A stretch of DNA of 64,000 bases from an uncultured Gammaproteobacteria bacterium (GCA_964560005.1 CAZLKB010000002.1:381-64380); one strand, 5' to 3'; shown: positions 9,928 to 30,015, counted from the first letter of the stretch. Numbers and translations are program-made. The notes: generated by a model from the letters alone, not told the origin.

Positions 9928-10347
9928 ATGCCTACAATAAATCAGCTGGTCCGCAAAGGACGGCATTCCAGCAGAGATAAATCTAAATCTCCGGCCCTGC
10001 AATCAACTCTGGATACTTTGCATAGAAAAAGAACTGACCTGCCTAAAGGAGCGCCGTTTAAGCGCGGAGTTTGCGTTAAGGTAACTACCACTACGCCGAA
10101 GAAACCTAATTCAGCTTTAAGAAAAATCGCCCGCGTCAGATTATCCAACGGTATGGAAGTTACCGCCTATATTCCGGGCGAAGGCCATAACTTGCAAGAG
10201 CACTCCATCGTCTTAATTAAAGGCGGCAGAACCAAAGATCTTCCGGGCGTCAGATATAAAATAATCCGCGGCGTCTACGATACCCAGGGAGTGGAAGGCA
10301 GAAAGCAGAGCCGCTCCAGCTATGGCGCCAAGAGACCTAAAAAGTAA
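9928..10347 (+). CDS. rpsL: 30S ribosomal protein uS12
   Basis: [24 protein letters not shown] and [10 protein letters not shown] motifs. Confidence 0.97.
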
Positions 10348-10464
10348 ATCAAATTTTAAATTTGTAATTTTAAATTTTAAATAAATTATAAATTACCAAA
10401 TTTAAAATTAAAATATTTAAAATTGATTTAAAATTAAAAATTTATAATTTAAAATTACTGTATT

Positions 10465-10932
10465 ATGAGAGGAAAACCAGTCTCAAAAAGAAAAATACAA
10501 GCCGATTCAAAATTTAACGATTTGGATATCGCTAAGCTTATTAATTATGTAATGGAGCGGGGTAAAAAAACCGTGGCGCAAAATATCGTTTATGATTGTT
10601 TTGATGTGATTAAGGAAAATACCAAGCAGGATCCCAGGCATGTATTCAATAAAGCTTTGAAGCAAGTCAGTCCCTTATTAGAAATCCGCGGCCGGAGAGT
10701 CGGCGGCGCCAACTACCAGATACCTTTTCAGGTCAGAGGCGAAAGGAGATTTGCTTTGGGCTGCCATTGGATTATTGACGCGGCCAGAGGCCGAAAAGGA
10801 AAACCCATGGCGGAAAAGCTGGCGGCTGAAATTATGGACGCCTCTAGAGGCGAAGGCGCGGCGGTAAAAAAGCGCGCCGAAGTCCATCGCATGGCCGAAG
10901 CCAATAAAGCCTTCGCTCATTTTGCTCGCTAG
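10465..10932 (+). CDS. rpsG: 30S ribosomal protein uS7
   Basis: 155 aa; GKKTVAQNIVY, RRVGGANYQIP and EANKAFAHFR-like motifs. Confidence 0.97.
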   Translation: MRGKPVSKRKIQADSKFNDLDIAKLINYVMERGKKTVAQNIVYDCFDVIKENTKQDPRHVFNKALKQVSPLLEIRGRRVGGANYQIPFQVRGERRFALGCHWIIDAARGRKGKPMAEKLAAEIMDASRGEGAAVKKRAEVHRMAEANKAFAHFAR

Positions 10933-10943
10933 CGCTCGCTAAG

Positions 10944-11060
10944 TTGAAAATGTAAAAATCAAAATGGAAAATGACAGTTTAAAATGTAAAATTTCAATAT
11001 TATTAATTTTTAATTTTACATTGTCATTTTAAACTTTGAGATTTACATTTTACATTTTTT
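10944..11060. repeat. palindromic intergenic element, aaaatgtaaaat family (copy 2)
   Basis: gaaaatgtaaaaatcaaaatggaaaatgacagt is near-identical to copies at 13144, 18082 and 33131. Confidence 0.9.
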
Positions 11061-11063
11061 ATT

Positions 11064-13145
11064 ATGCCCAGAGAGTATAGCTTAGAAAAAACCAGAAATA
11101 TCGGCGTGATCGCCCATATTGACGCCGGAAAAACCACTGTCAGCGAGCGGATTCTTTTTTATACCGGCAAAAAGCATAAGATCGGCGAAGTGCACGAAGG
11201 TTCAACCGATTTGGACTGGATGGAGCAGGAGCGGGAGCGCGGCATAACCATTACTTCCGCGGCCACCACTTGCTTTTGGAAAGATTGCCGCATTAATTTA
11301 ATTGATACTCCGGGGCATGTGGATTTTACCGCCGAAGTTGAAAGGTCTTTGCGCGTCCTGGACGGCGGGGTGGTAGTCTTTGACGGCGTGGCCGGAGTGG
11401 AACCGCAATCCGAAACAGTCTGGCACCAAGCGGATAAATATAAAGTTCCCCGCTTAGCTTTTATAAATAAAATGGACCGCACCGGAGCCGATTTCTATAA
11501 GGATTTGGCGGCTATCCATAAGAGATTGACTAAGCATGCCTATCCGGTTCAGCTGCCGATCGGCGCCGAAGACCAATTTAAAGGCATGATAGATTTATTT
11601 GAAAGAAAGGCCAGATTTTTTCTGGACGAATTAGGCACTAAGTGGGAAGACAAGGAAGTGCCGGCCGATATGAAAGAAAAGGTGGAAGAGCATCGAGCCA
11701 AGCTGGTTGAGGCTATCGCGGAAAACGACGACGCTTTAATGAATAAGTATTTAGCCGGCGAAAATATTCCAACCGAAGATTTAAAAAAAGTTCTGCGCCG
11801 AGCCGTTATCGCGAATAAAATCGTGCCGGTATTCTGCGGAAGCGCCTTAAAGAATAAAGGCGTGCAGAGCGTTTTGGACGGAGTGGTGGATTATCTGCCT
11901 TCGCCTTTGGATGTACCGGCGATTACCGGTTTTGATCCCGATGATAAGGAAAAGATTATCGCGGTTAAGCCGTCTGACGCGGAGCCATTCGCCTCTCTAG
12001 CTTTTAAAATCGCCACCGACCCCTATGTGGGAAAGCTTTGTTTTATCAGAGTTTATAGCGGAATTTTAAAATCCGGTTCTTATGTTTTAAATACTTCCAC
12101 CGGCAAGCGGGAAAGAATCGGCCGAATCGTCCGAATGCATGCCAATCATCGTGAAGAGCTTCAAGAAGTTTACGCCGGCGAAATCGCGGCCGTAATCGGC
12201 TTAAAAGGCACCACTACGGGCAATACTTTGTGCGATGAGAATCGGCCGGTCATTCTGGAATCAATCACTTTTCCCGAACCGGTTATTCATATCGCCATTG
12301 AACCGAAAACCAAGGCCGATCAGGAAAAAATGGGCATGGCTTTGTCAAAGCTAGCTGAAGAAGATCCGACTTTTAGAGTCCGAAGCGACGAAGAAACCAT
12401 GCAAACGGTTATCGGCGGCATGGGCGAACTTCATTTGGATATTATCGTTGATCGGATGAGGCGCGAATTCAAGGTTGAAGCCAATGTGGGCAAACCGCAG
12501 GTAGCTTATCGCGAAACCATTAAAAAATCAGCCGAAGCCGAAGGCAAATATATAAAACAATCCGGCGGACACGGACAATACGGGCATTGCTGGGTCAGAG
12601 TTGAGCCCAACGAACCGGGCAAGGGATTTGAATTTATTGATGAAGTTAAGGGCGGTTCCATTCCTCGCGAGTTTATTCCGGCGGTTGAAAAAGGCATTAA
12701 AGAGTCCTTGGATAGAGGTATTTTAGCCGGCTACCCGATCGTGGATGTTAAAGCCGCGGTTTTTGAAGGTTCTTACCATGAAGTTGATTCGTCCGAAGCG
12801 GCTTTTAAGATCGCCGGCTCTTTAGCTTTCCGAGACGCCTGCAAACATGCCTCGCCGGTAATTTTAGAACCGATTATGAAAGTTGAAGCCGTTACCCCGG
12901 AAGATTTTATGGGAGAAGTTATCGGCGACTTAAATTCAAAAAGAGCGCAGATTGAAGAAATGGGCGACCGAGCTCTGGTTAAATTCATTAAAGCTAAAGT
13001 TCCGCTATCGGAGATGTTCGGTTATGCCACTCAGCTTAGGTCAATGACCCAGGGCCGAGCCAGTTACACCATGGAATTCGCCTATTACGCCGAGGTGCCG
13101 AGAAATGTAGCCGAAGAGATAATCGGGGAGAAAGCGAAAAAGTGA
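11064..13145 (+). CDS. fusA: elongation factor G
   Basis: 693 aa; [17 protein letters not shown] and NKMD GTPase motifs plus EF-G domains. Confidence 0.97.
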
Positions 13146-13268
13146 AAAATGTAAAAATCAAAATGAAAAATGACAATGTAAAATGCAAAATTTAATAATT
13201 ATTTAATTTAATCATTTTACATTTTAAATTGTCATTTTCAACTTTGAGATTTAAATTTTACATTTTGA
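13144..13268. repeat. palindromic intergenic element, aaaatgtaaaat family (copy 3)
   Basis: gaaaaatgtaaaaatcaaaatgaaaaatgacaatgtaaaatgcaaaatt plus complementary right arm. Confidence 0.9.
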
Positions 13269-13271
13269 TGT

Positions 13272-13301
13272 TTGACATCTGATTATGTTAGAATATATAA
13301 T
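13272..13301 (+). promoter_or_regulatory. candidate promoter (TTGACA-N18-TATAAT)
   Basis: ttgaca 13272-13277, tataat 13296-13301. Confidence 0.35.
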
Positions 13302-13334: not shown

Positions 13335-13739
13335 ATGCAGGATCAATTACAAAAAGCGATTAATTTGGCCAAAAAAACCGGCGATAAATTAATTATTTTT
13401 GACAGCGCGAAACCCGATAATGTTTATGTGGTTTTGTCTCTAAAAGATTATGAAAATTTGGTTTTAGGTAAGAGCGAGGTCAGGGGCTTGACAGAAGATG
13501 AGTTACTTGATAAAATAAATCGCGATATTGCAATTTGGAAGAGCGAACAGACTATGGAGGAAAATGTTGATTCCGGCCTGGATCACTTTTCCGGATTATC
13601 CGCCGGTGCAGAGCCGGAACCGGCTCACGAAAAAATCATTAAAAAAGCCAAGAGCTGGTCCATTCCTTTAAGAAGAAAAAAGAATGCCGAAGAAATAATA
13701 GAAGAAGACCGGCAATATTTGGAAGATCTGGCATTTTAG
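13335..13739 (+). CDS. hypothetical protein inserted between fusA and tuf (N-terminus weakly Phd/YefM-antitoxin-like)
   Basis: 134 aa; the KLIIFDSAKPDNVYVVLSLKDYENLV pattern resembles antitoxin N-domains; acidic C-terminus. Confidence 0.45.
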   Translation: MQDQLQKAINLAKKTGDKLIIFDSAKPDNVYVVLSLKDYENLVLGKSEVRGLTEDELLDKINRDIAIWKSEQTMEENVDSGLDHFSGLSAGAEPEPAHEKIIKKAKSWSIPLRRKKNAEEIIEEDRQYLEDLAF

Positions 13740-13834
13740 TCTACAAATCAACAAATCGGCTACGAATATTACAAATAAATGTAATAATAGATTGTGAATT
13801 TCGTTAAGGATATGTACTTTTAAACAATTGGCCG

Positions 13835-13911: not shown

Positions 13912-14027
13912 ATCGTGATGGATAAATTATTCATCGCGCCTTCAACAAAATTCATAATTAAATTAATAATTATAGACGGCTGGGCGCCTATCAAATAATA
14001 AACATCAGGCAAAAACCTCAAAATTTT

Positions 14028-14055
14028 CTGGATTCCCGCTTTCGCGGGAATGACA
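14028..14055. repeat. GC-rich hairpin repeat (ctggattcccgc-loop-gcgggaatgaca family)
   Basis: ctggattcccgctttcgcgggaatgaca; related copies at 28669, 55497, 55612, 56777, 59702 and 59754. Confidence 0.85.
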
Positions 14056-15273: not shown

Positions 15274-15356
15274 ACATTTTATCCAGCTCCAGCTTTTTAA
15301 ACTGGGGCTGGATTATAATGCATATTTAAAGAAACAAAATTATGAGAGGACAAAAC

Positions 15357-15569
15357 ATGGAGAATCCATCTAAAAAAGAAACTGATATCGAAAGAAACGA
15401 AAGATTAAAAAAAATGGCAGCTAAAGCCGCTGAAGAAATTACGATGGATCCAAATAGGCCGATTGAGCAACAATTTGTAGCTTTTACTTACTTAAGAAAT
15501 ATGGAAATTGAAAGAAAGTTGGATGAAATGATAAAAAGATTAGAAAAAAGGGATAAACCCACATCCTAA
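15357..15569 (+). CDS. hypothetical charged protein (70 aa) between tuf and rpsJ
   Basis: ORF with GAGGA 6 nt upstream of ATG 15357. Confidence 0.4.
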   Translation: MENPSKKETDIERNERLKKMAAKAAEEITMDPNRPIEQQFVAFTYLRNMEIERKLDEMIKRLEKRDKPTS

Positions 15570-15700: not shown

Positions 15701-16078
15701 ATGACCGAAGCTAAAGAAAAAAAGTCTGTCAAAGATGACATGCCAAAATCCGAGACAAAAGCCAATGAAGATTCTAAACAAAGGATCAGAATTAAAATTA
15801 AGGCCTTTGACCACAAAATTATTGACCAGTCAACCAAGACGATAATTGATACGGCCGAACGAACCGGCGCCCAGATTTTCGGGCCGATTCCCTTGCCGAC
15901 CGAAAAGAAAAAGTATACGGTGAACAGTTCCACTTTTGTGCATAAGGATTCTAGAGACCAGTACGAGATCAGAATTCATAAAAGATTGGTGGATATTATT
16001 GAACCCACGGCTAAAACCATAGAATCGCTGACTAATCTAGGCTTACCGGCCGGGGTGGATATAGAGATAAAGATGTAA
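15701..16078 (+). CDS. rpsJ: 30S ribosomal protein uS10 (N-terminal extension)
   Basis: [24 protein letters not shown] and HKRLVDI motifs. Confidence 0.95.
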
Positions 16079-16178
16079 AAAGATTTAAGCCCTCCTTCTA
16101 AAGGAGGGGTAGGGGAGGTTAAAATGAAATTAATTTAACCCCCTTAATCCCCCTTTGCAAGGGGGACAAATATACGGG

Positions 16179-16207
16179 TTGACACAAATCACTTTATAAG
16201 TTAGAAT
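16179..16207 (+). promoter_or_regulatory. candidate promoter inside the rpsJ-rplC gap (TTGACA-N17-TAGAAT)
   Basis: ttgaca 16179-16184, tagaat 16202-16207. Confidence 0.4.
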
Positions 16208-16394
16208 GTATTTTATATAATATTAATGATTGTTTAGGTAACTCCCTTAGGGAAAGTACTTAAATAAGATTTGATATAAAAACGAGGTAAAAATCAATAA
16301 ACAGCTAAAAACTAATTAATCGCGAATTTTAGAAGCTAATTTACGCGAATAAAACTAATGAGTAGGCGAAAGCTTTCGCTGAAAATAGTTAGGG

Positions 16395-16420
16395 CTGGTT
16401 TGTTGAAGACCAGTTTTTTT
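16395..16420 (+). terminator. weak hairpin plus T7 run
   Basis: ctggt ttgttgaag accag ttttttt. Confidence 0.35.
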
Positions 16421-16547
16421 AATCTACGAATTACAAATTTGCTACAAATTTACAAATAAATATAACGCAAAGCCGGGAATATAAAAAGTAATATTTGTAA
16501 ATTTGTATAGGATTAGTAATTTGTAGGAGACGAATGAATCAAATTGT
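16420..16547. repeat. palindromic intergenic element, tacaaat/tacgaat family
   Basis: tctacgaattacaaatttgctacaaatttacaaata versus tatttgtaaatttgtataggattagtaatttgtagga. Confidence 0.8.
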
Positions 16548-17467: not shown

Positions 17468-17704
17468 ATGAAAGTAGAATCGATTAAGATTAAAGCAAAA
17501 CGGAGCAAGATTGGTGGTAGGTTGGTAACGATTGTCGATAGGGCCGATTTGCTGAAAAGGCGCCGGGAACTTAAAAGGATTTTATCAAAGCCAAGGATTC
17601 CTACAGATGATCGTGGTCTCGCTAATCTTAACGAGACCGAAAGGGAAAAACATCAGGTCATGCTTAAGCTGATTGAGTTGTTGCTAGTTAGCGTCCGTGG
17701 TTAA
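17468..17704 (+). CDS. hypothetical small protein, tandem cassette unit 1 (78 aa)
   Basis: strong SD aacGGAGGtttgaaATG; conserved flanks shared with unit 2. Confidence 0.5.
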   Translation: MKVESIKIKAKRSKIGGRLVTIVDRADLLKRRRELKRILSKPRIPTDDRGLANLNETEREKHQVMLKLIELLLVSVRG

Positions 17705-17771
17705 TCCTCACGGGGGCAGAGGAAATAAATTCAAAACAAAAACAACAGAAACAAGAAAACGGAGGTCTGAA

Positions 17772-18011
17772 ATGAAAGTACAATCGTTGGTTATTATCGA
17801 AAGAGCAGAGCTTAATAGCAAGGCCTGGGAATTGTCCGTCCGCCACAATCAGTTGGTGAGAGAAATAGAAGCCCAGGGAGATCCCACTGGAAGCAAAATA
17901 CAAGAGTTGCACGAGACCGATGCCGTGATGGGGTTTATTCAACGAGAGTTGCTCAAGGAAGAGGAAGTGAAGCCCAAAGACTACGGCATTCGCACTGTTC
18001 ATATCGGTTAA
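17772..18011 (+). CDS. hypothetical small protein, tandem cassette unit 2 (79 aa)
   Basis: strong SD aacGGAGGtctgaaATG; MKVxS N-terminus and xG-stop C-terminus shared with unit 1. Confidence 0.5.
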   Translation: MKVQSLVIIERAELNSKAWELSVRHNQLVREIEAQGDPTGSKIQELHETDAVMGFIQRELLKEEEVKPKDYGIRTVHIG

Positions 18012-18081
18012 TCCTCGCGGGGGCGGAGGAAATAAAGCCCCATTTTTAAAGATTAGTGATTTAAATAATTTAAAATTTAAA

Positions 18082-18207
18082 AGTCAAAATGGAAAATGAC
18101 AGTGCAAAATGTAAAATTACTTGTCCCGCTTCGCCTAACGAAGGCGGGGAAAATTCATTTTAAATTTTAATTTGTCACTTTTCATTTTGAGATTTGCAGT
18201 TTACATT
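18082..18207. repeat. palindromic intergenic element, aaaatgtaaaat family (copy 4), with a GC hairpin nested at its centre
   Basis: agtcaaaatggaaaatgacagtgcaaaatgtaaaatt ... cccgcttcgcctaacgaaggcgggg ... complementary arm. Confidence 0.85.
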
Positions 18208-18213: not shown

Positions 18214-18945
18214 ATGCCAATTAAAGTAAGAGTCTACAACCAAAACGCGGAAGCAACCGGGGAAATGGAACTTAGCCCTAAAGTTTTCGGTATGAAAGCC
18301 AATTCGGCTCTAGTGCATCAGGCGGTTGTCACCCAGATGGCTAACATGAGAAAAGTTATCGCCCACACTAAGACCAGATGCGAAGTCAGAGGCGGCGGCA
18401 GAAAACCCTGGGCGCAAAAGGGCACGGGCCGAGCGCGCCACGGGTCGTCCCGGTCGCCGATTTGGAAAGGCGGAGGCGTTACTTTCGGACCGAGAAATGA
18501 TCGAAATTTTAAAATGAGAATTAATAAAAAGATGAGGCAGAATGCCATCTTGATGGTTTTATCCGATAAATTGGCCAGTAATCATTTTACGATTGTGGAT
18601 AAGCTGGAAATGGCCGAGTTTAAAACCAAACTGTTTAATCAAATAATCGCCGGATTTGAAAAGAAGCTTTTCACCACCTCGGTAGCAACGGCTCCGGTTG
18701 AAAAAAACATAGAAAAAAAAGCGGAAAACAAAACGGTAGCCGCTAAAACCAAAAAATCGGCAGGCAAGCGCAGTATCTTGATAATCGTGCAAAAAGCGGA
18801 GGAAAAGTTAAGCGGTTCGGCTAGAAATCTGCCCGGCATTGAGTTAATGAATCTGGATAATATTAATATAGTTGATTTATTGCAGTATAAAAATTTAATT
18901 TTAACCAAAGCGGTTATAGAGAAGCTGGAAGAGAGATACAAGTAG
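18214..18945 (+). CDS. rplD: 50S ribosomal protein uL4
   Basis: GGGRKPWAQKGTGRARHGS motif; ATG 18214 preferred because the track start at 18172 is inside the repeat. Confidence 0.93.
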   Translation: MPIKVRVYNQNAEATGEMELSPKVFGMKANSALVHQAVVTQMANMRKVIAHTKTRCEVRGGGRKPWAQKGTGRARHGSSRSPIWKGGGVTFGPRNDRNFKMRINKKMRQNAILMVLSDKLASNHFTIVDKLEMAEFKTKLFNQIIAGFEKKLFTTSVATAPVEKNIEKKAENKTVAAKTKKSAGKRSILIIVQKAEEKLSGSARNLPGIELMNLDNINIVDLLQYKNLILTKAVIEKLEERYK

Positions 18946-19083
18946 AATTTTTAATTTTATCCCCCTTCGCTAACGCTGCGGAGGATAAATAATTTTTAAT
19001 TTTTAAATAATGTCTAATCTTTAATATTTAAAAATTAGAGCATTAAAAATTATTTATAAAATTAAAAATTTAAAAATTATTTT

Positions 19084-19575
19084 ATGTCAATATTCGGTAA
19101 GAAAACTGAAGATAAGGCAAAAGCTGCGGCTAAACCGGAGCCGGTTAAGGGTGGAAAAGCGCCTGCCACGGAAGAAAAGAAAACCCAAAGCATGAAAGAT
19201 TTGTACAGTACTCCCGCAGTTGCATCTTCGGCGAAACTCGGAACCAGCAAATCTAAAGATGTAAAAAAAGGAGAAGTCAGGGCGTCTTACGGCAACGCTT
19301 ATCGGATTTTAGTTAAGCCATTAGTTACGGAAAAAGTCAGTAATTTGGGAGTTTTAAATAAATATGTTTTTGCCGTGGCGCCCGAAGCCAATAAAATAGA
19401 GATCGCCAAAGCCGTTAAAGAAGTTTATGGCATTAAACCTGTTGGCGTTAATATTATTAATCGGCTCGGCAAGAAAGCGCGCTACGGCCGAATCAGCGGT
19501 TGGCGGAAAGATTGGAAGAAAGCCATAGTTACCTTGCCGAAAGGCCAAACCATTAAGATTTATGAAGGCGTATAA
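19084..19575 (+). CDS. rplW: 50S ribosomal protein uL23 (about 65-aa Lys/Ala-rich N-terminal extension)
   Basis: core ILVKPLVTEKVSN...YVFAVAPEANKIEIAKAVKEVYG...KKAIVTL. Confidence 0.92.
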   Translation: MSIFGKKTEDKAKAAAKPEPVKGGKAPATEEKKTQSMKDLYSTPAVASSAKLGTSKSKDVKKGEVRASYGNAYRILVKPLVTEKVSNLGVLNKYVFAVAPEANKIEIAKAVKEVYGIKPVGVNIINRLGKKARYGRISGWRKDWKKAIVTLPKGQTIKIYEGV

Positions 19576-19678
19576 TATGAAGTAAGAAGTATGAAGTGAG
19601 AAGTAAAATTAAAATTTTTAAAAAGATTGTTCGGCCGTATTTTCTAACTTCTAACTTCTTACTTCTAAACTAATTAAT
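19576..19678. repeat. palindromic spacer, gaagtaagaagt family
   Basis: gaagtaagaagtatgaagtgagaagtaaaa versus ttttctaacttctaacttcttacttc. Confidence 0.8.
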
Positions 19679-20512: not shown

Positions 20513-20606
20513 ACAAGAAGTTGAAAGTTATAAAGTTTATAAAGTTATAAAGTAGATGAATTTAACTTTACAAACTATCAACTTTATAACTTTATAACTA
20601 ATTTAT
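20513..20606. repeat. palindromic spacer, ataaagtt family
   Basis: gttgaaagttataaagtttataaagttataaagt versus actttacaaactatcaactttataactttataac. Confidence 0.85.
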
Positions 20607-20939
20607 ATGACCAGAAGTTTAAAAAAAGGCCCATATGTGAACGAAAGGCTCATGAAGAAGCTAAGAGCCATGCGTCCCGGCGATAAGAATATAATAAAAG
20701 TCTGGGATAGAGCTTGTACGATTGCGCCGGAGATGGTAGGCTTTACCATCGGAGTGCATAATGGCAAACAGCATACCCCGGTTTTTATCGTAGAAAATAT
20801 GGTCGGCCATAAATTAGGAGAATTCGCGCCCACCAGAAAATTTGTCAGTCATGGCGGCAAGATGGCGAAAGATCAGGCCAAAGAATCGGCCGCGGCCGCT
20901 GCCCCGGCGCCAGCCGCAGCACCTAAGGCGGGAAAATAA
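20607..20939 (+). CDS. rpsS: 30S ribosomal protein uS19 (Ala/Pro-rich C-terminal tail)
   Basis: [18 protein letters not shown] and [11 protein letters not shown] motifs. Confidence 0.96.
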
Positions 20940-21059
20940 ATTACCCCACAAATCTACGAATCCGCTACGAATATCACGAATATAATTTGTAGTATTTGTA
21001 GCCGATTCGTTGATTTGTAGGTTAGGTACAAGCTATAAATAATTAACAATAAAGAATTC
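20940..21059. repeat. palindromic spacer, tacaaat/tacgaat family
   Basis: cacaaatctacgaatccgctacgaatatcacgaatat versus atttgtagtatttgtagccgattcgttgatttgtagg; the arm is near-identical to 13742-13777. Confidence 0.85.
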
Positions 21060-21635
21060 ATGGAAGTTAAAGCTAAAGTAAAATTTATCAGAATGTCGTC
21101 CACGAAGATACGTTTAGTGGCTAATCTGATTAAGGACATGCCGGTAGATAAGGCGCTGGACCAGCTTCAGTTTATTAATAAACTGGCTGCTCGTCCGGTG
21201 GCTAAGCTCGTTAAGTCCGCCATAGCTAACGCGGAACATAATTTTGAATTGGCTAAAGATAATTTATTTATAAAAGAATTAACCGTAGGCGAAGGTCCGA
21301 CTTTGAAACGCTGGCTGCCCAGGGCGCACGGACGAGCGACGCCGCTTAGAAAACGAACCAGCCATATTAATTTAATATTGGGAGAAATTAAAGCATCGGG
21401 TAAAACCGGGGCTAAAAAACAGAATCTAACCGCGCCGGTTAAGCTGGACGCCAGTCCGAAGAAAGAGCCGGCCGTTAAGATAAAAGAGGCGGCCAAACCG
21501 AAAAAAAATATTGAAACCAAGGAAGAAGGCAAGACTATAATTGATCCGAGAATGGAAGGCCGAGGCGGGCACGCTAAAATTGAAGGCGGCAGCAAGGGAT
21601 TTGTCGGTAAAATGTTTAGACGGAAAAGTGGTTAA
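21060..21635 (+). CDS. rplV: 50S ribosomal protein uL22 (long Lys-rich C-terminal extension)
   Basis: SSTKIRLVANLIKDMPV and RAHGRATPLRKRTSHI motifs. Confidence 0.95.
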   Translation: MEVKAKVKFIRMSSTKIRLVANLIKDMPVDKALDQLQFINKLAARPVAKLVKSAIANAEHNFELAKDNLFIKELTVGEGPTLKRWLPRAHGRATPLRKRTSHINLILGEIKASGKTGAKKQNLTAPVKLDASPKKEPAVKIKEAAKPKKNIETKEEGKTIIDPRMEGRGGHAKIEGGSKGFVGKMFRRKSG

Positions 21636-21735
21636 CAAGTAAAAAGTTATAAAGTTCATAAAGTTTGTAAAGTTATAAATTAAAAAATAGGCTACTTTCA
21701 ACTTTATAAACTTTCAAACTTTATAACTAATTTAT
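21636..21735. repeat. palindromic spacer, ataaagtt family
   Basis: aaagttataaagttcataaagtttgtaaagttataaa versus tactttcaactttataaactttcaaactttataac. Confidence 0.85.
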
Positions 21736-22425
21736 ATGGGACATAAAGTAAATCCAAAGGTTTTCAGACTGAATATTACCAGGACCTGGCCGTCCAGGTG
21801 GTTTGCTACTGGGCAAACCATGATCAGCAATTTAAAACAAGATGTTAATTTGAAAAAATATTTATTTACCGAATTGCGCGAGGCCGGGGTAGATAGGATT
21901 GAAATTGATAGAAGCGGCCACAAGGTTACTATCGGCATCTTTACGGCCAAGCCCGGAATACTAATCGGCCGCGGCGGCAGCGGCGCCGGTGATTTAAAAA
22001 AGAAATTGCATGATAAATTTTTAAAGAATTTTAAATTAGGCGATATAAATTTGAATATTACCGAATTTGACCGGCCCAATTTATCCAGCAACATTATCGC
22101 CGGCGCCATGGCGATTGATATTGAAAAGAGGATGCCTTTTAGAAGAGTAATGAAGCAGGCGATTAACCGCATTGAAAGAGCCGGCGCCTTAGGGGTAAAG
22201 GTGATTATCAGCGGCCGGCTGAATGGCGCGGAAATCGCCAGAACGGAAATGCTGACTTCGGGTAAAGTGCCGTTGCATACTTTAAGAGCCGATATAGATT
22301 TTGCCAAAGCCACGGCCAAAACCACCTATGGCACCATCGGAATAAAATTATGGATATATAAAGGCGATGTCTTTAAAAAAGAAAGCGAAACCGCCAAGGG
22401 GGAAGTAGTAGGAGAGAAGAAATAA
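21736..22425 (+). CDS. rpsC: 30S ribosomal protein uS3
   Basis: MGHKVNPKVFRL, KPGILIGRGG (KH domain) and ISGRLNGAEIAR motifs. Confidence 0.96.
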   Translation: MGHKVNPKVFRLNITRTWPSRWFATGQTMISNLKQDVNLKKYLFTELREAGVDRIEIDRSGHKVTIGIFTAKPGILIGRGGSGAGDLKKKLHDKFLKNFKLGDINLNITEFDRPNLSSNIIAGAMAIDIEKRMPFRRVMKQAINRIERAGALGVKVIISGRLNGAEIARTEMLTSGKVPLHTLRADIDFAKATAKTTYGTIGIKLWIYKGDVFKKESETAKGEVVGEKK

Positions 22426-22504
22426 GAGTTATAAAGTTCATAAAGTTATAAAGTTAAAAGTAAATTCTGATAACTTTATAAACTTTATAACTTTCAACTA
22501 ATAT
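22426..22504. repeat. palindromic spacer, ataaagtt family
   Basis: gagttataaagttcataaagttataaagtt versus aactttataaactttataactttcaac. Confidence 0.85.
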
Positions 22505-22909
22505 ATGTTGACGCCGAAGAAAACAAAATGGAGAAAGATGCATAAGCGCAAGCGGGGAGGCAAGGCTTCCCAGATGCTTAGCTTAAGCTTTGGCGACTAT
22601 GGTTTAAAAAGCTTGGAAGCTTGCTGGATTTCTTCAAGGCAGATTGAATCGGCTAGAAAAGTTTTAACCAGATATATCTCGAAGGGCGGCAAGGTGTGGA
22701 TCAGGATTTTTCCCGATAAGTCAGTCACGATCAAGGGCGGAGAAATTCCCATGGGCAAGGGCAAGGGTACGGTCGACCATTATGTAGCGATCGTCAAGCC
22801 GGGCATGATAATGTTTGAAATGGCCGGCATAGCCGAACCCGAGGCTAAAGAAGCCATGAAAATGGCCGGCTATAAGCTGCCGGTTAAATGCAAGTATATT
22901 AAGAAATAA
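22505..22909 (+). CDS. rplP: 50S ribosomal protein uL16
   Basis: MLTPKKTKWRK, WIRIFPDK and MGKGKG motifs. Confidence 0.96.
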   Translation: MLTPKKTKWRKMHKRKRGGKASQMLSLSFGDYGLKSLEACWISSRQIESARKVLTRYISKGGKVWIRIFPDKSVTIKGGEIPMGKGKGTVDHYVAIVKPGMIMFEMAGIAEPEAKEAMKMAGYKLPVKCKYIKK

Positions 22910-22993
22910 AAAACGAATCATCGCGAATAAATTTAAAATCAGATTAATAAAATTCGTGTTCATTCGCTATAATTCGCGATTAATTAGTTATAT
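22910..22993. repeat. palindromic spacer, cgcgaat family
   Basis: acgaatcatcgcgaataaattt versus aaattcgtgttcattcgctataattcgcgat. Confidence 0.8.
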
Positions 22994-23179
22994 ATGGAAT
23001 TAAAGGAATTAAAATTAAAAGCCGAGAAAGAACTTAAGCAACTTTTGAACGAATTCCGCGATAAATTGAGAGATTTGCGTTTTAAGGATGCCAATAAGCA
23101 ATTAAAAGATGTTAGAGAGATTCGGGAGATAAAGAAGACGATCGCTCGGATTTTAACATTGTTAAAGGTTAAGAAATAA
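22994..23179 (+). CDS. rpmC: 50S ribosomal protein uL29
   Basis: 61 aa; ELKELKLKAEKELKQLLNEFRDKLRDLRF coiled-coil pattern and operon position. Confidence 0.9.
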   Translation: MELKELKLKAEKELKQLLNEFRDKLRDLRFKDANKQLKDVREIREIKKTIARILTLLKVKK

Positions 23180-23200
23180 TTGAAAATTATTCAAAGAAAT

Positions 23201-23494
23201 ATGGAAAGTCAAATCAGCAAAAATAATCAACCAGTCAAACGCCAGGTCATTAGACGGAAGTTTAATGGCGTGGTTACGAGCGATAAAATGGACAAAACCA
23301 GGATAGTCGCGGTTACCTCGGCTAAAATATATCCGAAGTATTTGAAAAGATATAAGGTCAGCAAAAAATTTAAAGTCCATGATGAAAAAAATCAGTATAA
23401 AGTCGGCGACAAGGTAAGTTTTATTGAATGCCGCCCGATCAGCAAGGATAAAAGATGGCGGATGATATATCAAAGCGAATTGGGTACGAATTAA
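23201..23494 (+). CDS. rpsQ: 30S ribosomal protein uS17
   Basis: GVVTSDKMDKTRIVAV, HDEKNQYKVGDKV and ECRPISKDKRW; a TTG start at 23180 is also possible. Confidence 0.92.
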   Translation: MESQISKNNQPVKRQVIRRKFNGVVTSDKMDKTRIVAVTSAKIYPKYLKRYKVSKKFKVHDEKNQYKVGDKVSFIECRPISKDKRWRMIYQSELGTN

Positions 23495-23578
23495 AAGCAA
23501 ATTAGCGCGAATGAATGGATAATAAGGTTAATAAATTAGAGTTAATTCGCGTTAAATTTGAGATTAATTAGTTATTAT
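23495..23578. repeat. palindromic spacer, cgcgaat family
   Basis: aaattagcgcgaatgaatggataataa versus ttagagttaattcgcgttaaattt. Confidence 0.8.
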
Positions 23579-23950
23579 ATGATACAGGTACAATCAATTT
23601 TAAAAGTTGCCGATAACACAGGCGCCAAGAGAGTATTGTGCGTTAAGATTTTTGGCGGTTATAAAAAACGCTATGCCGGCGTAGGCGAGGTTATTACCGC
23701 GGTCGTTAAGGAAGCCGAACCGCATGCCGCCATAAAAAACGGAGATATCGTTCACGCCGTAGTCGTTAGAACCAGAAAAGAAGTCAGAAGGCCGGATGGC
23801 GTTTATGTGCGCTTTGATGAGAATGCTTGCGTTATTATTGATAAAGACAAGAAAGAGCCTAAGGGCACAAGAATTTTCGGTCCGGTGGCCAGGGAACTAA
23901 AACAGTTGGGCTTTATAAAGATTGCCTCGCTGGCGCCGGAAGTTTTGTAA
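23579..23950 (+). CDS. rplN: 50S ribosomal protein uL14
   Basis: [17 protein letters not shown]...[11 protein letters not shown]...GPVARELK; start placed at the internal ATG in the frame of the supplied ORF track. Confidence 0.95.
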
Positions 23951-24051
23951 AGCGAATTCTACGCGAATTAGAACGAATAGTCGCGAATGGATAATAAAAT
24001 TAATAAAATTTGAATTAATTCGCGCCTAATTAGAGATAAATTAGTTATTAT
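23951..24051. repeat. palindromic spacer, cgcgaat family
   Basis: agcgaattctacgcgaattagaacgaatagtcgcgaatgg versus tttgaattaattcgcgcctaattagag. Confidence 0.8.
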
Positions 24052-24384
24052 ATGAAGATTAAAAAGGGAGATAAAGTAAAAATATTAGCCGGTAAGGATA
24101 AGGGTAAAATCGGCAAGGTTTTGCAGATTTTTCCTTCTGCCAATCGGGCTTCAATTGAAGGCCTAAATCTTTTAATTAAGCACATGCGGCCGAGAAAACA
24201 AGGCGAAAAAGGCCAAAGAATAGAATTTCCGGCACCGATGGATTTATCTAATATCATTCTGATTTGCAAGTCTTGCGATAAGCCGACCAGAGTAGGTTAT
24301 AAATATATAGAAGTCATGAAAAATGAAGCTAAACATAAGAAGAAAGTCAGAGTATGTAAAAAATGCAAGCAAGTGATGGAATAG
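24052..24384 (+). CDS. rplX: 50S ribosomal protein uL24 (Cys-containing C-terminal extension)
   Basis: MKIKKGDKVKILAGKDKGKIGKVLQI KOW motif. Confidence 0.93.
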   Translation: MKIKKGDKVKILAGKDKGKIGKVLQIFPSANRASIEGLNLLIKHMRPRKQGEKGQRIEFPAPMDLSNIILICKSCDKPTRVGYKYIEVMKNEAKHKKKVRVCKKCKQVME

Positions 24385-24474
24385 CGAATAAAAAAAGAAT
24401 TGATACGCGAATTAATCGAATTAACACTTAAATTGGCGATGAATTCGCATTTAATTGGAGATTAATTAGTATAT
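24385..24474. repeat. palindromic spacer, cgcgaat family
   Basis: gatacgcgaattaatcgaattaacac versus ggcgatgaattcgcatttaattgg. Confidence 0.75.
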
Positions 24475-25062
24475 ATGGCTTTAAAAGAAAAATATCAAAA
24501 AGAAATAATGCCAAAGCTGGAAGCTAAATTCGGGTATAAGAACCCGATGGCTGTGCCGCGCTTAACCAAAGTGGTAATTAATTCCGGCGTCGGCAGGAAT
24601 GCTAAAGACAAGGCTTTTATTGATAGCGTATATTCCAGTTTAGAGAGAATCAGCGGTCAAAAGCCGGTGCTAACTAAAGCCAAGCAATCAATTTCCGCAT
24701 TCAAAACCAGAAAGGGCATGGTTGTGGGCGTGGCTGTTACCTTGCGCAACAAGAGAATGTATGATTTTGTGGAAAAATTAGTTGGCATAACTTTTCCGAG
24801 AATTAGAGATTTCAGAGGCATTAACCCCAAGCAAGTAGATGATAAGGGAAATTTAGCCGTAGGTTTTAAAGAACATATCGCTTTTCCGGAAATCAAAGCC
24901 GATGAAGCGGAGAATATCCATGGCCTGGGCGTTTGTTTAAACACCACTGCTAAAAACCACGAACAAGGCTTAGAACTGTTTAAATTAATGGGATTTCCTT
25001 TTAGAACGGATGATGAAATTGAATCAAAGAAAGCTAAAAAGAAGAATAAAAAAATTAATTAA
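24475..25062 (+). CDS. rplE: 50S ribosomal protein uL5
   Basis: [25 protein letters not shown] and FPRIRDFRG motifs. Confidence 0.96.
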
Positions 25063-25073
25063 TTATATTATAT

Positions 25074-25259
25074 ATGCCTAGAACAGCGTTATTGGTAAAA
25101 GCCAGAAGGAAACCTAAATTCTCCACCAGAATCGTCAGGCGTTGCTGGCGTTGCGGCCGCAATCACGGTTATATGAGAGATTTCGGCCTGTGCCGCATTT
25201 GTTTTAGGGAATTGGCGTCTAATACCGACATACCGGGAGTGACGAAGTCTAGTTGGTAG
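25074..25259 (+). CDS. rpsN: 30S ribosomal protein uS14, short zinc-binding type
   Basis: 61 aa; CWRCGR...CRICFRE Cys4 pattern. Confidence 0.95.
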
Positions 25260-25431
25260 TACAATGTAAAATATAAGTTTTAAAATTACCAGGTAAAATT
25301 TTCAATTTTCAATTCTCAATTTTCAAACAATTTTCAATGACTAAATTTTCAATGAAATACAAATAACTGTTTGAAAATTATAACATTAAATCATTGTTTA
25401 GAAATTGAAAATTAGAAATTATAAATTATCT
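25260..25431. repeat. palindromic spacer, ttttcaat family
   Basis: aaaattttcaattttcaattctcaattttcaaacaattttcaatgac is near-identical to 30020-30075; right arm ttgaaaattagaaatt. Confidence 0.85.
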
Positions 25432-26395: not shown

Positions 26396-26492
26396 GGCCT
26401 CGCAACTTGTAACTCGCAACTCATAACTCAAAATGCAATAATATAATTTGGGTTACGGGTTATGAGTTACGAGTTATGAGATGTAAGATTCT
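26396..26492. repeat. palindromic spacer, aactcgcaactcataac family
   Basis: cgcaacttgtaactcgcaactcataactc versus gggttacgggttatgagttacgagttatgag. Confidence 0.8.
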
Positions 26493-26846: not shown

Positions 26847-27010
26847 ACTTCACAAATCTACAAATTAGCTCACGAATATTACAAATAAGATAAATTATAA
26901 TAAAATAATTTGTAAATTTGTGAATTAATTTGTTGATTTGTGAATAATTATAAGGGAAATAAGAAAGATAAAAAATTAAATATCATCCGATTAAATACAA
27001 TTACATAAAT
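26847..27010. repeat. palindromic spacer, tacaaat family
   Basis: cacaaatctacaaattagctcacgaatattacaaata versus atttgtaaatttgtgaattaatttgttgatttgtga. Confidence 0.8.
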
Positions 27011-27736
27011 ATGAGTGAAGAAATAAAGCAACAAGTCAATCAAGCAAATGTAACAGCACCGGCGGCGGAGGCTAAGGTTAACCCTGTTTCGGCTGCGCCG
27101 GCGACTGAAAAGAAAAATAATTTTGGTTCTGAAATCAGGCCGGGTTCTTCCGACAGGTTTGGAGAAAGAAAAAGAAATTTTAAAGGAAAAAGAGGCGCTC
27201 CGCGCGGCCGAGGCGGAGACGGTATACCGGAAGAGTTTGAACAGAAAATGATTGATATCGCCAGAGTTACCCGCGTTATGGCCGGAGGCAAGAGAATGCG
27301 CTTCAGGGCTTGCGTGGCTATCGGAAATAAAAAGGGCCGGGTGGCGATTGGCTTGGCCAAGGGCGCTGATGTTACCGGAGCTGTCACCAAGGCCGTTAAT
27401 AAAGCTAAAAAGGAGTTTATAGATATACCAATAATAAATGAAACCATACCCCATCAGATTTATCAAAAGTTGGGTGCCGCTAAAATTTTATTAAAACCGT
27501 CCAAAAAGGGGCGCGGTATTATCGCCGGCGGCGTGGTCAGGATTGTTCTGGAATTAAGCGGCGTAAAGAATGTAACCAGCAAGATTTTGGGTACCGGCAA
27601 TAAAGTAAATAATGCCAAATGCGTCATGGCGGCTTTAAAAAATTTAAAAAGGCCGGAACCGAAAAAGGCAAAAGCGGAAAAAGATAAAACCGTTCTGACG
27701 ACCATGACCGATCTTACCGGCCAGGACAAGAAGTAA
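27011..27736 (+). CDS. rpsE: 30S ribosomal protein uS5 (N- and C-terminal extensions)
   Basis: IDIARVTRVMAGGKRMRFRACVAIGNKKGRVAIGLAKG and GRGIIAGG motifs. Confidence 0.93.
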   Translation: MSEEIKQQVNQANVTAPAAEAKVNPVSAAPATEKKNNFGSEIRPGSSDRFGERKRNFKGKRGAPRGRGGDGIPEEFEQKMIDIARVTRVMAGGKRMRFRACVAIGNKKGRVAIGLAKGADVTGAVTKAVNKAKKEFIDIPIINETIPHQIYQKLGAAKILLKPSKKGRGIIAGGVVRIVLELSGVKNVTSKILGTGNKVNNAKCVMAALKNLKRPEPKKAKAEKDKTVLTTMTDLTGQDKK

Positions 27737-27903
27737 ATAATAGATTATAATAAATATAGAATTAATTTTTAATTTTCAATTACTAATTTTCAATGAATTT
27801 TCAATGATTAAATTTTCAAATTATTAAACAGCATTCCCGTTTGAAAATTAATTCATTAATTCATTGATCATTGTTTGAAAATTGAAAATTGAGAATTATT
27901 TTT
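27737..27903. repeat. palindromic spacer, ttttcaat family, at the position where rpmD (uL30) would normally sit
   Basis: aattttcaattactaattttcaatgaattttcaatgattaaattttcaa versus ttgaaaattgaaaattgagaatt; no ORF. Confidence 0.85.
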
Positions 27904-28347: not shown

Positions 28348-28401
28348 AATTTAGAAGTAAGAAGTAAGAAGCAACAAATTTATTAATTGATAATCAAATT
28401 T

Positions 28402-28665
28402 ATGGTTAATAAATTAGAAGAAATAAAAATAAGTATTGGAGAAGAATCTAGAAAAAATGAAAAAAGAGTTGATATGGCTAGAGTTACAGAAATTAATAAA
28501 GCTTCAGTAGAATTGTTTGATGCATTAAAACAGCATGTATCATCTTTAACTGAAGCTGAGGCCGATATTTTAACAAAAAGATTGACTCATGAATTTGAGG
28601 ATTATTTAGCGATTCTGTTAAGAATAAGAAAAGCGGCGTTTGAGAGAAGAAAAGAACATGAATAA
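28402..28665 (+). CDS. hypothetical helical protein (87 aa) between rplO and secY
   Basis: ORF only. Confidence 0.35.
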   Translation: MVNKLEEIKISIGEESRKNEKRVDMARVTEINKASVELFDALKQHVSSLTEAEADILTKRLTHEFEDYLAILLRIRKAAFERRKEHE

Positions 28666-28668
28666 ATT

Positions 28669-28736
28669 TCTGGATTGCACCTCAGTGCAGACCTCGGCGC
28701 AGAAAAAGAAAACGGGGTGCCTGCGCGGGAATGACA
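28669..28736. repeat. two degenerate GC-rich hairpin repeats
   Basis: ctggattgcacctcagtgcag ... gcctgcgcgggaatgaca. Confidence 0.6.
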
Positions 28737-28743
28737 AGAAAAT

Positions 28744-30015
28744 ATGATGGAAAAATTAATCCAAATTTGGAAAGCGCGCGATTTAAGGAATAGCATTCTG
28801 TTCGTTTTGGCTATGCTGGCGATTTTTCGCGTGGCCGCTCATATTCCCGTCCCCGGCGTTGACACGGTGGCCTTAAAAGATTTTTTCGCTTCAAATCAAA
28901 TTTTAGGATTAATGAATATTTTCGCTGGCGGGGGCATGGAAAATTTTTCCATAGTCATGATGGGCGTAGGCCCCTACATCACTTCTTCAATCATTTTTCA
29001 GCTCTTAGCCATGATTATTCCCAAGCTGGAAGAAATGAATAAAGAAGAAGCCGGCCGCCAAAAAGTCAATATGTGGACCCGCTGGCTGACCGTTCCTCTA
29101 GCCGCCCTGGAAGCTTACGGCATGATTACCCTGCTTAGGCGTTCATCCCATCTGATTTTAGGCGATATTGATGCCATGAGCTTAATTACCATGATTATTA
29201 CGATATCCGCCGGCACCATATTTTTAATGTGGCTGGGCGAGCTGATGACGGAAAAGAAAGTCGGCAACGGTATATCCTTATTGATTTTTGCCGGCATCGT
29301 CGCCGGTCTCTTACAGACCGTACAGCAAGTCGCGGTTACTTTTGACCCATCTAAGCTCTATATGATTTTAGGTTTTATAGCTATTGCCCTAATTACCATA
29401 GTCGGCGTAGTGGTAATAAACGAAGGCCAGCGCAATGTGCCGGTGCAATACGCCAGGCAAATCAGGGGCAACCGCATGTTCGGCGGCACCTCAACGCATT
29501 TGCCTTTAAGGGTGAATATGGCCGGAGTGATTCCGATTATTTTCGCTATTTCGGTAGTTATCTTTCCCCCCATGATTGCCCAGTTTTTTGTTAACGCGCG
29601 AACCGAATTTTTAGCCAAAGCGGCCGCTTGGACCATCGGCTTTTTCCAAAATCAACTAGTCTATGCAATCTTGTACTTCTTGCTGGTTTTTGCTTTTACT
29701 TATTTTTATACCGAAGTCATTTTCCACCCCACCCAGATCGCTGAAAATCTGCAAAAGCAGGGCGGTTTTATTCCCGGCATCAGGCCGGGCCGGCATACCA
29801 GCGAATATTTAGCCAATACCACGCATAAAATCATTTTCGTCGGCGCTTTATTTTTAGGCCTGATCGCCATTCTGCCTCTGATTTTAAGATATTTCACCGG
29901 CATGCAATTTTTAACCATCGGCGGAACTTCGCTGTTAATCGTGGTCTCGGTGGTAATTGAAACAGTTAAGCAGATTGAATCGCAGCTAACCATGCGGGAG
30001 TATGAGGGAATGTAA
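28744..30015 (+). CDS. secY: preprotein translocase subunit SecY
   Basis: 423-aa 10-TM ORF; LGLMNIFAGG, GVGPYITSSIIFQLL and FIPGIRPG motifs. Confidence 0.96.
   Translation: MMEKLIQIWKARDLRNSILFVLAMLAIFRVAAHIPVPGVDTVALKDFFASNQILGLMNIFAGGGMENFSIVMMGVGPYITSSIIFQLLAMIIPKLEEMNKEEAGRQKVNMWTRWLTVPLAALEAYGMITLLRRSSHLILGDIDAMSLITMIITISAGTIFLMWLGELMTEKKVGNGISLLIFAGIVAGLLQTVQQVAVTFDPSKLYMILGFIAIALITIVGVVVINEGQRNVPVQYARQIRGNRMFGGTSTHLPLRVNMAGVIPIIFAISVVIFPPMIAQFFVNARTEFLAKAAAWTIGFFQNQLVYAILYFLLVFAFTYFYTEVIFHPTQIAENLQKQGGFIPGIRPGRHTSEYLANTTHKIIFVGALFLGLIAILPLILRYFTGMQFLTIGGTSLLIVVSVVIETVKQIESQLTMREYEGM

Follow-up and report, generated by a model that had tools for sequence, protein, structure and literature searches.

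The window analysed here, a 64,000-nucleotide (nt) stretch of DNA from an uncultured bacterium filed under Gammaproteobacteria (GCA_964560005.1, CAZLKB010000002.1:381-64380), carries at positions 9928-30015 the str, S10 and spc ribosomal clusters, with every gene on the + strand and with long AT-rich hairpins at most of the gene junctions. The gene order is rpsL-rpsG-fusA-(orf134, tRNA-Glu)-tuf-(orf75)-rpsJ-rplC-(orf78/orf104)-rplD-rplW-rplB-rpsS-rplV-rpsC-rplP-rpmC-rpsQ-rplN, followed by rplX-rplE-rpsN-rpsH-rplF-rplR-rpsE-rplO-(orf92)-secY; the gene for L30 is absent from the rpsE-rplO interval. As the ribosomal protein (r-protein) L2 is 84-93% identical to that of metagenome-assembled genomes (MAGs) labelled Candidatus Falkowbacteria, Parcubacteria or Patescibacteria, we take the host to be a Falkowbacteria-like bacterium of the candidate phyla radiation (CPR) with a small genome. 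The hairpin spacers are, we consider, likely to be several families of small, non-autonomous, palindromic dispersed repeats, that is, selfish mobile DNA tolerated in an essential operon.

Hairpins at the ribosomal gene junctions

A sequence-only reading of the window had listed 17 widened gaps in the cluster, each with a palindromic spacer, and three compact junctions. All 17 lengths (given in the list below) are exact to the base, and the compact junctions are indeed rplE-rpsN (11 nt), rpsH-rplF (4 nt) and rpmC-rpsQ (21 nt). The spacers have a GC content of 6-37%, against ~40-46% in the genes. Each copy of the element is 60-150 nt long, very AT-rich, and composed of two arms of tandem units in inverted orientation, pairing into stems of 25-55 pairs; typically (medians) the hairpin starts 4 nt past the stop codon and ends 8 nt ahead of the next ATG. 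Tandem Repeats Finder resolves the arms into 3-8 tandem copies of 7- or 8-nt units, namely AAATTTT, AAAATGT, GAAGTAA, AAAGTTAT, AATTTTC, CTCGCAA and AATTTGTA. When 16 r-protein spacers were folded against 200 dinucleotide-preserving shuffles each, 13 folded better than chance (z -2.5 to -8.7; 0-5 of the 200 shuffles equal). The architecture that had been described, AT-rich imperfect hairpins with arms of iterated 7-8-mers, is therefore right on both tests, and the hairpin that had been described for each spacer holds for these 13 but not for three spacers of the CGCGAAT family, rplP-rpmC, rplN-rplX and rplX-rplE, which have no significant fold (z -0.5, -0.1 and -1.4).

The 469-nt rpsJ-rplC gap fits the description only in its last 100 nt, a hairpin repeat that was fold-tested alone (16420-16547); the remainder is composite, made of GC palindromes, a promoter-like site and a conserved leader with a terminator. 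For comparison, the same 25 genes were located in 160 related loci (L numbers) and every junction was measured. The spacer elements of the cluster are as follows (gap length in brackets; z from the fold test).

10352..10456, rpsL-rpsG (117 nt): hairpin repeat of AAATTTT units, 40 pairs, GC 4%, z -2.8
10945..11054, rpsG-fusA (131 nt): hairpin of the AAAATGT family (family A), the sole spacer hairpin with a T-run after it, z -4.7
16424..16526, rpsJ-rplC (469 nt): TACAAAT-family hairpin, from the leader terminator to the rplC start, z -5.4
18946..19083, rplD-rplW (138 nt): small GC hairpin (18961-18984) and AATTTTTAA-type AT hairpin (18992-19069), z -5.4
19579..19668, rplW-rplB (103 nt): hairpin of GAAGTAA units, z -4.8
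20519..20599, rplB-rpsS (94 nt): hairpin of the AAAGTTAT family, z -4.2
20942..21028, rpsS-rplV (120 nt): hairpin of the TACGAAT/TACAAAT family, with an orthologous copy in L012, z -7.4
21639..21735, rplV-rpsC (100 nt): hairpin of the AAAGTTAT family, z -5.6
22426..22493, rpsC-rplP (79 nt): hairpin of the AAAGTTAT family, z -5.6
22910..22993, rplP-rpmC (84 nt): degenerate CGCGAAT-family spacer carrying a TATAAT promoter-like site, z -0.5
23495..23578, rpsQ-rplN (84 nt): CGCGAAT-family spacer with a short stem (23498-23560), z -2.5
23951..24051, rplN-rplX (101 nt): degenerate CGCGAAT-family spacer, z -0.1
24385..24474, rplX-rplE (90 nt): degenerate CGCGAAT-family spacer, z -1.4
25291..25431, rpsN-rpsH (172 nt): hairpin of the TTTTCAAT (AATTTTC) family, with a possible family A remnant before it (25260-25290), z -3.3
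26399..26487, rplF-rplR (97 nt): hairpin of CTCGCAA units with many + strand G.U pairs and an orthologous copy in L012, z -7.6
26849..26944, rplR-rpsE (164 nt): TACAAAT-family hairpin, z -8.7
27752..27901, rpsE-rplO (167 nt): hairpin of the TTTTCAAT family, z -6.0

The spacers are not an artefact of one assembly, since independent Logan assemblies of two sequencing runs match window positions 18698-25323 at 100% identity. Two short-read Logan contigs of this organism (L081, L082) terminate beside or inside hairpin repeats: one end lies at 20609-20631, within the opening bases of rpsS and just 3' of the rplB-rpsS hairpin, and another at 25323, within the rpsN-rpsH hairpin. The r-protein block is a standard marker for CPR phylogeny and binning, and these contig ends indicate that the repeats break up CPR assemblies inside it.

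Distribution in the window and in related genomes

The hairpins, which had been described for the ribosomal cluster, are not confined to it: when all 64 kb were scanned for inverted repeats and for folding, roughly one in two intergenic regions of more than 40 nt proved to contain a long AT-rich hairpin of the same type, and those outside the cluster adjoin ordinary housekeeping genes. By a hand count, made with no statistical test, significantly folded spacers occupy ~18 of the 30 junctions within the cluster and 19 of the 46 outside it, figures on which we claim no enrichment in the ribosomal cluster. Family A has five copies in the window, the TTTTCAAT family four and the AAAGTTAT family three. 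Besides the spacers already listed, the window contains the following elements.

8691..8803: family A copy upstream of 9928-30015, inverted relative to the other four copies
13146..13266: family A copy immediately 3' of the fusA stop codon, z -3.8
13741..13790: partial copy of the TACAAAT/TACGAAT family 3' of orf134, 92% identical over 36 nt to the rpsS-rplV spacer
18073..18202: family A copy 5' of rplD whose loop encloses a GC-rich hairpin (18125-18149)
28348..28375: half element 3' of rplO, a single arm of GAAGTAA units
30020..30077: half element 3' of secY, the left arm alone of the TTTTCAAT family, 93% identical to 25295-25352
33132..33236: family A copy outside the cluster, 5' of ruvX, its hairpin at 33144-33216
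33648-33759, 38637-38761, 40283-40448, 45575-45659, 47086-47230 and 50709-50800: further hairpins of the same type

Copies at unrelated positions share long stretches of sequence. The five family A copies are 84-93% alike over 50-120 nt and have arm asymmetries in common. Over 121 nt the rpsE-rplO element shares 84% identity with the rplD-rplW element of L001, and its TTTTCAAT family recurs with 91-94% identity over 51-59 nt at other junctions of L001, L003 and L021; the identity to the L021 copies is 91% over 59 nt, though the L2 of L021 is only 73% identical. The GAAGTAA family sits at rplW-rplB in the window and at rplV-rpsC in L004. A further family, AATTACGAAT, is absent from the ribosomal junctions of the window and has 25 junction copies in 14 genomes, each beginning 0-5 nt past a stop codon and ending 1-7 nt ahead of an ATG. 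Decay and rearrangement are visible as well: there are one-arm copies (the two half elements listed, and others in L011 and L021), nested insertions (the GC hairpin at 18125-18149, another GC hairpin at rpsS-rplV of L012 and a 200-nt insert within the family A copy at rpsN-rpsH of L001), and differences in unit number between orthologous copies.

The microsatellite-like arms, these differences in unit number, one-arm arrays that could be precursors, and the recurrence of one architecture with many unrelated units in different lineages would all suit growth in place, in which slippage yields tandem 7-8-mers and a template-switch fold-back supplies the second arm, independently at each junction. 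We consider this very unlikely as the general explanation, for the copies share 50-120 nt of irregular unit order, loops and arm asymmetries (84% over 121 nt, 93% over 58 nt), and homology of such length and irregularity rules out purely independent growth. Slippage in place may still account for the birth of new families.

Comparison of junctions across genomes bears directly on the dispersed-repeat reading. A junction of at least 60 nt was scored as filled, and the comparison took in 80 non-redundant genomes in each of which 12 or more junctions could be scored. No junction is filled in 29 of the 80, and the window, with 14 of 17, ranks third highest; the ancestral state of the clade is compact. 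Among the 18 genomes whose L2 is 84-93% identical, the filled fraction ranges from 0 to 53%, and close relatives have junctions of 1-30 nt. In the closest relative, L084 (93% L2 identity), rplW-rplB measures 10 nt and rplB-rpsS 27 nt, against 103 and 94 nt in the window. At rpsC-rplP, where seven relatives read taaTatg (a 1-nt spacer), three unrelated repeat families have filled the same junction: the window has one of them, L002/L003 a second and L009 a third. Heavily filled genomes occur in several separate groups by L2 identity, and other, independently filled lineages repeat the architecture with other units (CGCATAA x6, AAAGTCCAT, GCAGGTA/ACAAGTA, CGTATTT). Over the 17 junctions the spacers total 1,629 nt in the window versus ~100-300 nt in compact relatives, so that with 14 of 17 tight junctions invaded the r-protein block has become ~1.5 kb longer.

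The repeats are thus lineage-specific, gained and lost between related species, present in both orientations, as half elements and as nested insertions, and decaying without compensation. Spacers that proved unconserved and lineage-specific in related genomes were what the sequence-only reading itself had named as pointing away from function and toward selfish repeats, and it is this alternative that we favour, given the turnover of families at one junction and the presence of one family at different junctions.

Several other features accompany the elements. A second, GC-rich, REP-like class of repeat (named for the repetitive extragenic palindromic sequences discussed below), TCTGGATTCCCGC..GCGGGAATGACA and TGTCATTGCGAGCGA..TCGCAATGACA, is found in the window at three intergenic sites (14026-14055, 28668-28736, 59702-59731) and in L001, L004, L011, L012, L013 and L052, sometimes nested within AT-rich hairpins. 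Three short GC-rich palindromes after the rpsJ stop codon (16089-16168), GCCCTCCTTCTAAAGGAGGGG, GGGGAGGTTAAA..TTTAACCCCC and TCCCCCTTTGCAAGGGGGA, are unlike both classes. In L002, L004, L011, L017, L020, L030 and L092 the rpsG-fusA gap houses unrelated small genes, among them a RelE-like pair, secreted or membrane proteins and a GxxExxY-type protein; the enlarged gaps hold small toxin-antitoxin-like and secreted-protein open reading frames (ORFs) and no transposases. The str-cluster junctions of this clade thus act as hot spots for insertions in general and not for hairpins alone.

Five small ORFs and one tRNA-Glu within the cluster had been passed over in the sequence-only reading. The ORFs (13335-13739, 15342-15569, 17468-17704, 17697-18011, 28387-28665) split universally adjacent genes. 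Sought as candidate trans-acting factors, the five had no convincing Pfam, NCBIfam or PHROG family. The products of orf78 and orf104, which overlap by 8 nt, are apparently paralogous, and the rplC-rplD gap is ~770 nt in L001 and L002 as well; orf134 has a weakly Phd/YefM-like N-terminus and a perfect TTGACA-18-TATAAT site upstream (13272-13301). Several r-proteins have long extensions, S10 (125 aa, 15701-16078), L23 (163 aa, 19084-19575), L22 (191 aa, 21060-21635) and S5 (241 aa, 27011-27736), and N-termini of low complexity rich in Lys, Ala and Glu. Downstream of secY lie adk and map; the usual infA-rpmJ-rpsM-rpsK-rpoA genes do not come next.

Folding, transcription and the question of function

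The function first proposed for the hairpins was that of selected intercistronic RNA elements, acting as RNase III or other processing sites, as 3'-end stabilisers or as translational insulators in the polycistronic r-protein mRNA. Phage T7 early mRNAs and chloroplast operons are punctuated in this manner. The long stems inside apparent operons that have no internal canonical terminator, and their close placement between stop and start codon, agree with such a role, as do the conservation of family sequences across genera and the persistence of some orthologous hairpins, still folding, in species with 85-90% L2 identity; initiation, moreover, may depend on local structure where Shine-Dalgarno sites are lacking (see below).

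The stems themselves, however, do not bear the mark of selection on RNA. In 240 spacers with AT-rich hairpins, folded under a ban on G-U pairing, transition mismatches within the stems were tallied. Selection on sense-strand RNA would be expected to leave G.U in large excess over A.C, and the counts are 115 G.T versus 124 A.C (p = 0.6), with 143 versus 144 in the GC-richer hairpin class; we thus find no RNA-level selection signal. Strand polarity of wobble pairs per hairpin is likewise not significant (p=0.18). Complementarity between arms is 0.77-0.80 within a copy and 0.77-0.85 between arms of different copies (homologous arms being 0.74-0.89 identical, by family and arm); as arms of one copy pair no better than arms of different copies, pairing is inherited from an imperfect family consensus and not kept copy by copy. 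The hairpins match no curated Rfam family and give no signal of pair-preserving substitution: at the gathering threshold, Rfam finds only tRNAs, both in the window and in seven loci, and relaxing the cut-off to E<=1 for the cluster adds only chance, sub-threshold matches resembling miRNA precursors.

The leader between rpsJ and rplC of the same loci served as positive control, with compensatory changes in 11 of 17 predicted pairs, many G.U pairs and almost no A.C. This element and the terminator that closes the operon are placed as follows.

16179..16417, + strand: non-repeat region before rplC, with a promoter-like TTGACA-17-TAGAAT (16179-16207), then a structured leader and a terminator hairpin (16391-16417)
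30076..30108, + strand: canonical intrinsic terminator, GC stem and U-tract, at the end of the spc/secY unit, in contrast to the AT hairpins

The leader, a conserved structured element of ~150-200 nt just 5' of rplC, is present even in the most compact relatives and at the same position in L006, L024, L029, L035, L046, L134 and others. Its 5' hairpin (TTTAGnTAAC..GAAAGTG) covaries strongly, and it ends in a terminator-like CTGGTTT..AAACCAG stem with a U-tract, making it a candidate r-protein leader or attenuator with no Rfam match.

Against selected RNA elements, then, stand a sense strand with no excess of G.U over A.C, unlike the genuine RNA in the same loci, arms that do not co-evolve, and folds lost in three spacers. 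To these are added a presence at the junctions that is unconserved even in the closest relatives (many sister lineages function with junctions of 1-30 nt), copies in both orientations, and the same elements at non-operonic intergenic sites. On this evidence we judge selection for processing, stability or insulation unlikely; the host may nevertheless make some secondary use of the hairpins.

A consensus scan found no terminator with GC stem and U-tract in any spacer from rplC to secY, and convincing terminators lie at 16391-16417 (the leader end), 30076-30108 (after secY) and 47728-47766. With canonical terminators only at the operon ends, rplC to secY would form a single transcription unit with the hairpins transcribed in it, so the premise of one transcript, on which the proposed function leaned, is likely sound. 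The contrary possibility, that the operon has been broken into monocistronic units with each spacer ending one transcript as an AT-rich terminator and supplying a promoter to the following gene, draws on an excess of promoter-like matches (74 versus 47 +/- 6 in shuffles), for example TTAATA-18-TATAAT at 22944-22973 before rpmC, and on the rpsG-fusA hairpin, which is followed by TTTTTTAT. Yet a U-tract follows only 1 of 16 hairpins (mean 3.1 T within 8 nt past the stem), the excess is what AT-rich patches should give against a shuffle of mixed composition, and the best promoter-like sites, 13272-13301 and 16179-16207, are both outside hairpins. A broken operon is accordingly highly improbable. 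Leaderless promoters in the hairpin tails were discarded on inspection of the sequence, the positions of the hexamers not fitting.

Shine-Dalgarno sites are essentially absent from the 40 nt upstream of every start codon in the whole window, the sole clear GGAGG preceding the inserted orf78; leaders are A/T-rich and typically end in ..AAT/ATT ahead of the ATG. Compact relatives lack such sites too, which indicates that their absence predates the repeat invasion.

Spread of the repeats and known systems

On the mobile-repeat reading, the elements would have spread through the intergenic junctions of a Falkowbacteria-like genome and reached 13-17 normally compact junctions of the str-S10-spc block. 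Copies would insert, or be copied, into the few nt that separate a stop codon from the next start codon; insertions elsewhere in an essential block would be lethal, so that only the intergenic ones survive, to be transcribed together with the operon. Tolerance would follow from the fold and from the host: an insert that folds on itself would restore roughly the ancestral distance between stop and start, making it the least disruptive kind of insert, and a lineage without Shine-Dalgarno sites would have little to disrupt. Incidentally, the long AU-rich stems would attract double-strand-specific RNases and obstruct 3' exonucleases, which is expected by analogy with REP and Correia elements and best regarded as a side effect and not as a demonstrated function. 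The copies might be mobilised by a transposase supplied in trans, or multiplied by template switching or recombination, and template switching at quasi-palindromes may also generate new families. The CTCGCAA family has an intrinsic strand polarity: the window copy at 26399-26487 pairs via + strand G.U, and in the rpsL-rpsG copies of L009 and L100 the corresponding mismatches are A.C (0:4 and 1:5), as would be seen had these copies gone in the other way round. This hints at a single-stranded intermediate for that family, with too few copies to test. As for a phage origin, a 23-mer of the TTTTCAAT family had 0 matches in a scan of viral contigs, and we discarded the idea.

Several points weigh against mobility. 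No transposase, REP-associated tyrosine transposase (RAYT) or integrase was found among the ~40 window proteins scanned, and no autonomous copy in the 64-kb window or in the relatives' enlarged rpsG-fusA gaps. Neither the family A nor the TTTTCAAT copies are bordered by a common direct repeat of the kind that a target-site duplication leaves; 2-nt flanks match in 2 of 16, which equals chance, although ends are ill-defined in AT-rich DNA and short duplications may have gone unseen. No single insertion event could be reconstructed, because no filled/empty pair at strain level turned up: searches with the exact proteins brought up nothing but short contigs that match the window fully, no relative in a metagenome scan exceeded 93% L2 identity, and in an all-against-all megablast no locus paired with the window above ~82% DNA identity. 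The conservation of families across genera (86-96%, against ~82-84% for the DNA of flanking genes) could reflect function instead of the constraint of a mobiliser, and the ~8 nt left free ahead of the ATG could mirror selection on translation. Finally, co-transcription and the fate of the RNA are inferred from the sequence.

A broader proposal, which we put forward only tentatively and regard as doubtful, would join these strands: the elements would be an undescribed class of mobile palindromes, 'tandem-unit hairpins', originating by slippage and fold-back, spreading at stop/start junctions, and relied upon by the host in some lineages. Their spread could be transposase-independent or proceed by a new hairpin-dependent mechanism. 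Some Falkowbacteria hosts may have come to depend on them to punctuate polycistronic mRNAs that lack Shine-Dalgarno sites, the hairpins marking where the mRNA is processed, protecting its 3' ends, or looping out so that stop and start stay adjacent.

CPR (Patescibacteria) genomes are regarded as streamlined and repeat-poor, and no description of such elements in CPR bacteria was found in the literature searched. The window indicates that long hairpins at almost all junctions can be accommodated by an operon that is essential and tightly co-expressed, a tolerance that bears on translation initiation in lineages without Shine-Dalgarno sites, and filled and empty junctions in related species amount to a natural experiment on the effects of intercistronic hairpins. 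We rate the interest of the elements as moderate; it lies in their location and in these natural comparisons.

The regular alternation of genes with 60-150-nt imperfect palindromes recalls known repeat-array systems (integron attC sites, TIGR arrays, CRISPR), and TIGR systems are reported in CPR bacteria (PMC12045711). The tests run leave such a system, or an assembly artefact, with practically no probability. The attC core sites (R'' RYYYAAC and R' GTTRRRY) occur in 0 of 16 hairpins; the genes are universally syntenic r-protein genes and not cassettes; the repeats have a period of 7-8 nt, sometimes 11 or 14, and in no case 36, and there are no tandem 36-nt two-spacer units as in TIGR-Tas. Among the window proteins scanned there is no IntI integrase, no Nop-domain (Tas) protein and no Cas protein; Rfam returned nothing of the kind, and independent assemblies are identical. 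Nor do the rplC-secY spacers, lacking a short GC-rich stem with U-tract, resemble intrinsic terminators. Phage T7 early mRNA likewise has long imperfect hairpins between its cistrons, processed by RNase III; there each site is conserved, unique and tied to one orientation, whereas the hairpins described here are repeated, unconserved, in both orientations and without covariation at the RNA level, so the analogy is functional only.

The cyanobacterial STRR heptamers are intergenic heptamer direct repeats, akin to the TAACTGA repeats. The TAACTGA direct repeats of Beggiatoaceae, Cyanobacteria and Bacteroidetes (PMC4679880) are likewise tandem 7-nt units directly 5' of start codons, r-protein operons included, at genes without ribosome-binding sites and with a patchy phylogenetic distribution that suggests horizontal spread; there, however, one heptamer is repeated in direct orientation, only one inverted case being reported, whereas here many units form inverted arms. 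Correia elements (Correia repeat enclosed elements, CREE) of Neisseria (PMC2649163) and the ERIC, RUP and BOX elements (PMC3184786, PMC2229807, PMC3049150) are also small, non-autonomous, co-transcribed intergenic inverted repeats. RNase III binds or cuts the hairpins of CREE, which can also give rise to promoters (PMC2649163), the behaviour that had been proposed for the spacers. CREE are recognised by 26-bp terminal repeats, a TA duplication and a core that binds integration host factor (IHF). The present elements have arms of tandem 7-8-mers, no TA or other target-site duplication and no distinct core, the whole element being palindromic; they share no sequence similarity with CREE-type MITEs (miniature transposable elements with inverted repeats) and fall into far more families, with unit-repeat arms. 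Against the generic MITE, their small size (60-150 nt, within the MITE range of 50-500 bp), terminal inverted repeats (here the whole element is an imperfect inverted repeat) and multiple dispersed copies at non-homologous sites agree; no target-site duplication was found, nor a cognate autonomous insertion sequence (IS) with matching ends in the 64-kb window or the relatives' enlarged rpsG-fusA gaps.

The REP sequences of Enterobacteria and Pseudomonas, their hairpin-forming pairs (REPINs) and RAYTs (PMC3116915, PMC3333891, PMC3733652) likewise comprise high-copy extragenic imperfect palindromes, often in operons just past stop codons, with several families per genome, inverted pairs that form larger hairpins, singlets as remnants, and a family sequence conserved by the mobilising enzyme and not by host function. 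REPs, though, are 20-40 nt, GC-rich and carry a GTAG/CGTC tag, whereas the elements here are 60-150 nt, have a GC content of 4-37%, no tag and arms of tandem 7-8-mers, and no gene for a RAYT (a Y1 HUH transposase) was found among the window proteins scanned. The palindromes of Volvox mitochondrial and plastid DNA (PMC2670323), the hairpin-forming elements of sponges (PMC2800124) and the 'palindromic microsatellite' repeats of Fusarium (PMC7218506) are AT-rich hairpin repeats that inflate the intergenic spacers of small, gene-dense genomes; no transposase is known for them, and their optional presence among close relatives is taken as evidence of mobility. The Fusarium elements even join microsatellite-like units with a palindrome. 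Those systems belong to eukaryotic organelles, whereas here a free CPR chromosome carries the repeats in its most conserved operon. The elements behave like REP/REPINs, MITEs and organelle palindromes, yet lack defining features of each, and their architecture, inverted arms of tandem 7-8-mers drawn from many units, offers a lead for research on mobile DNA.

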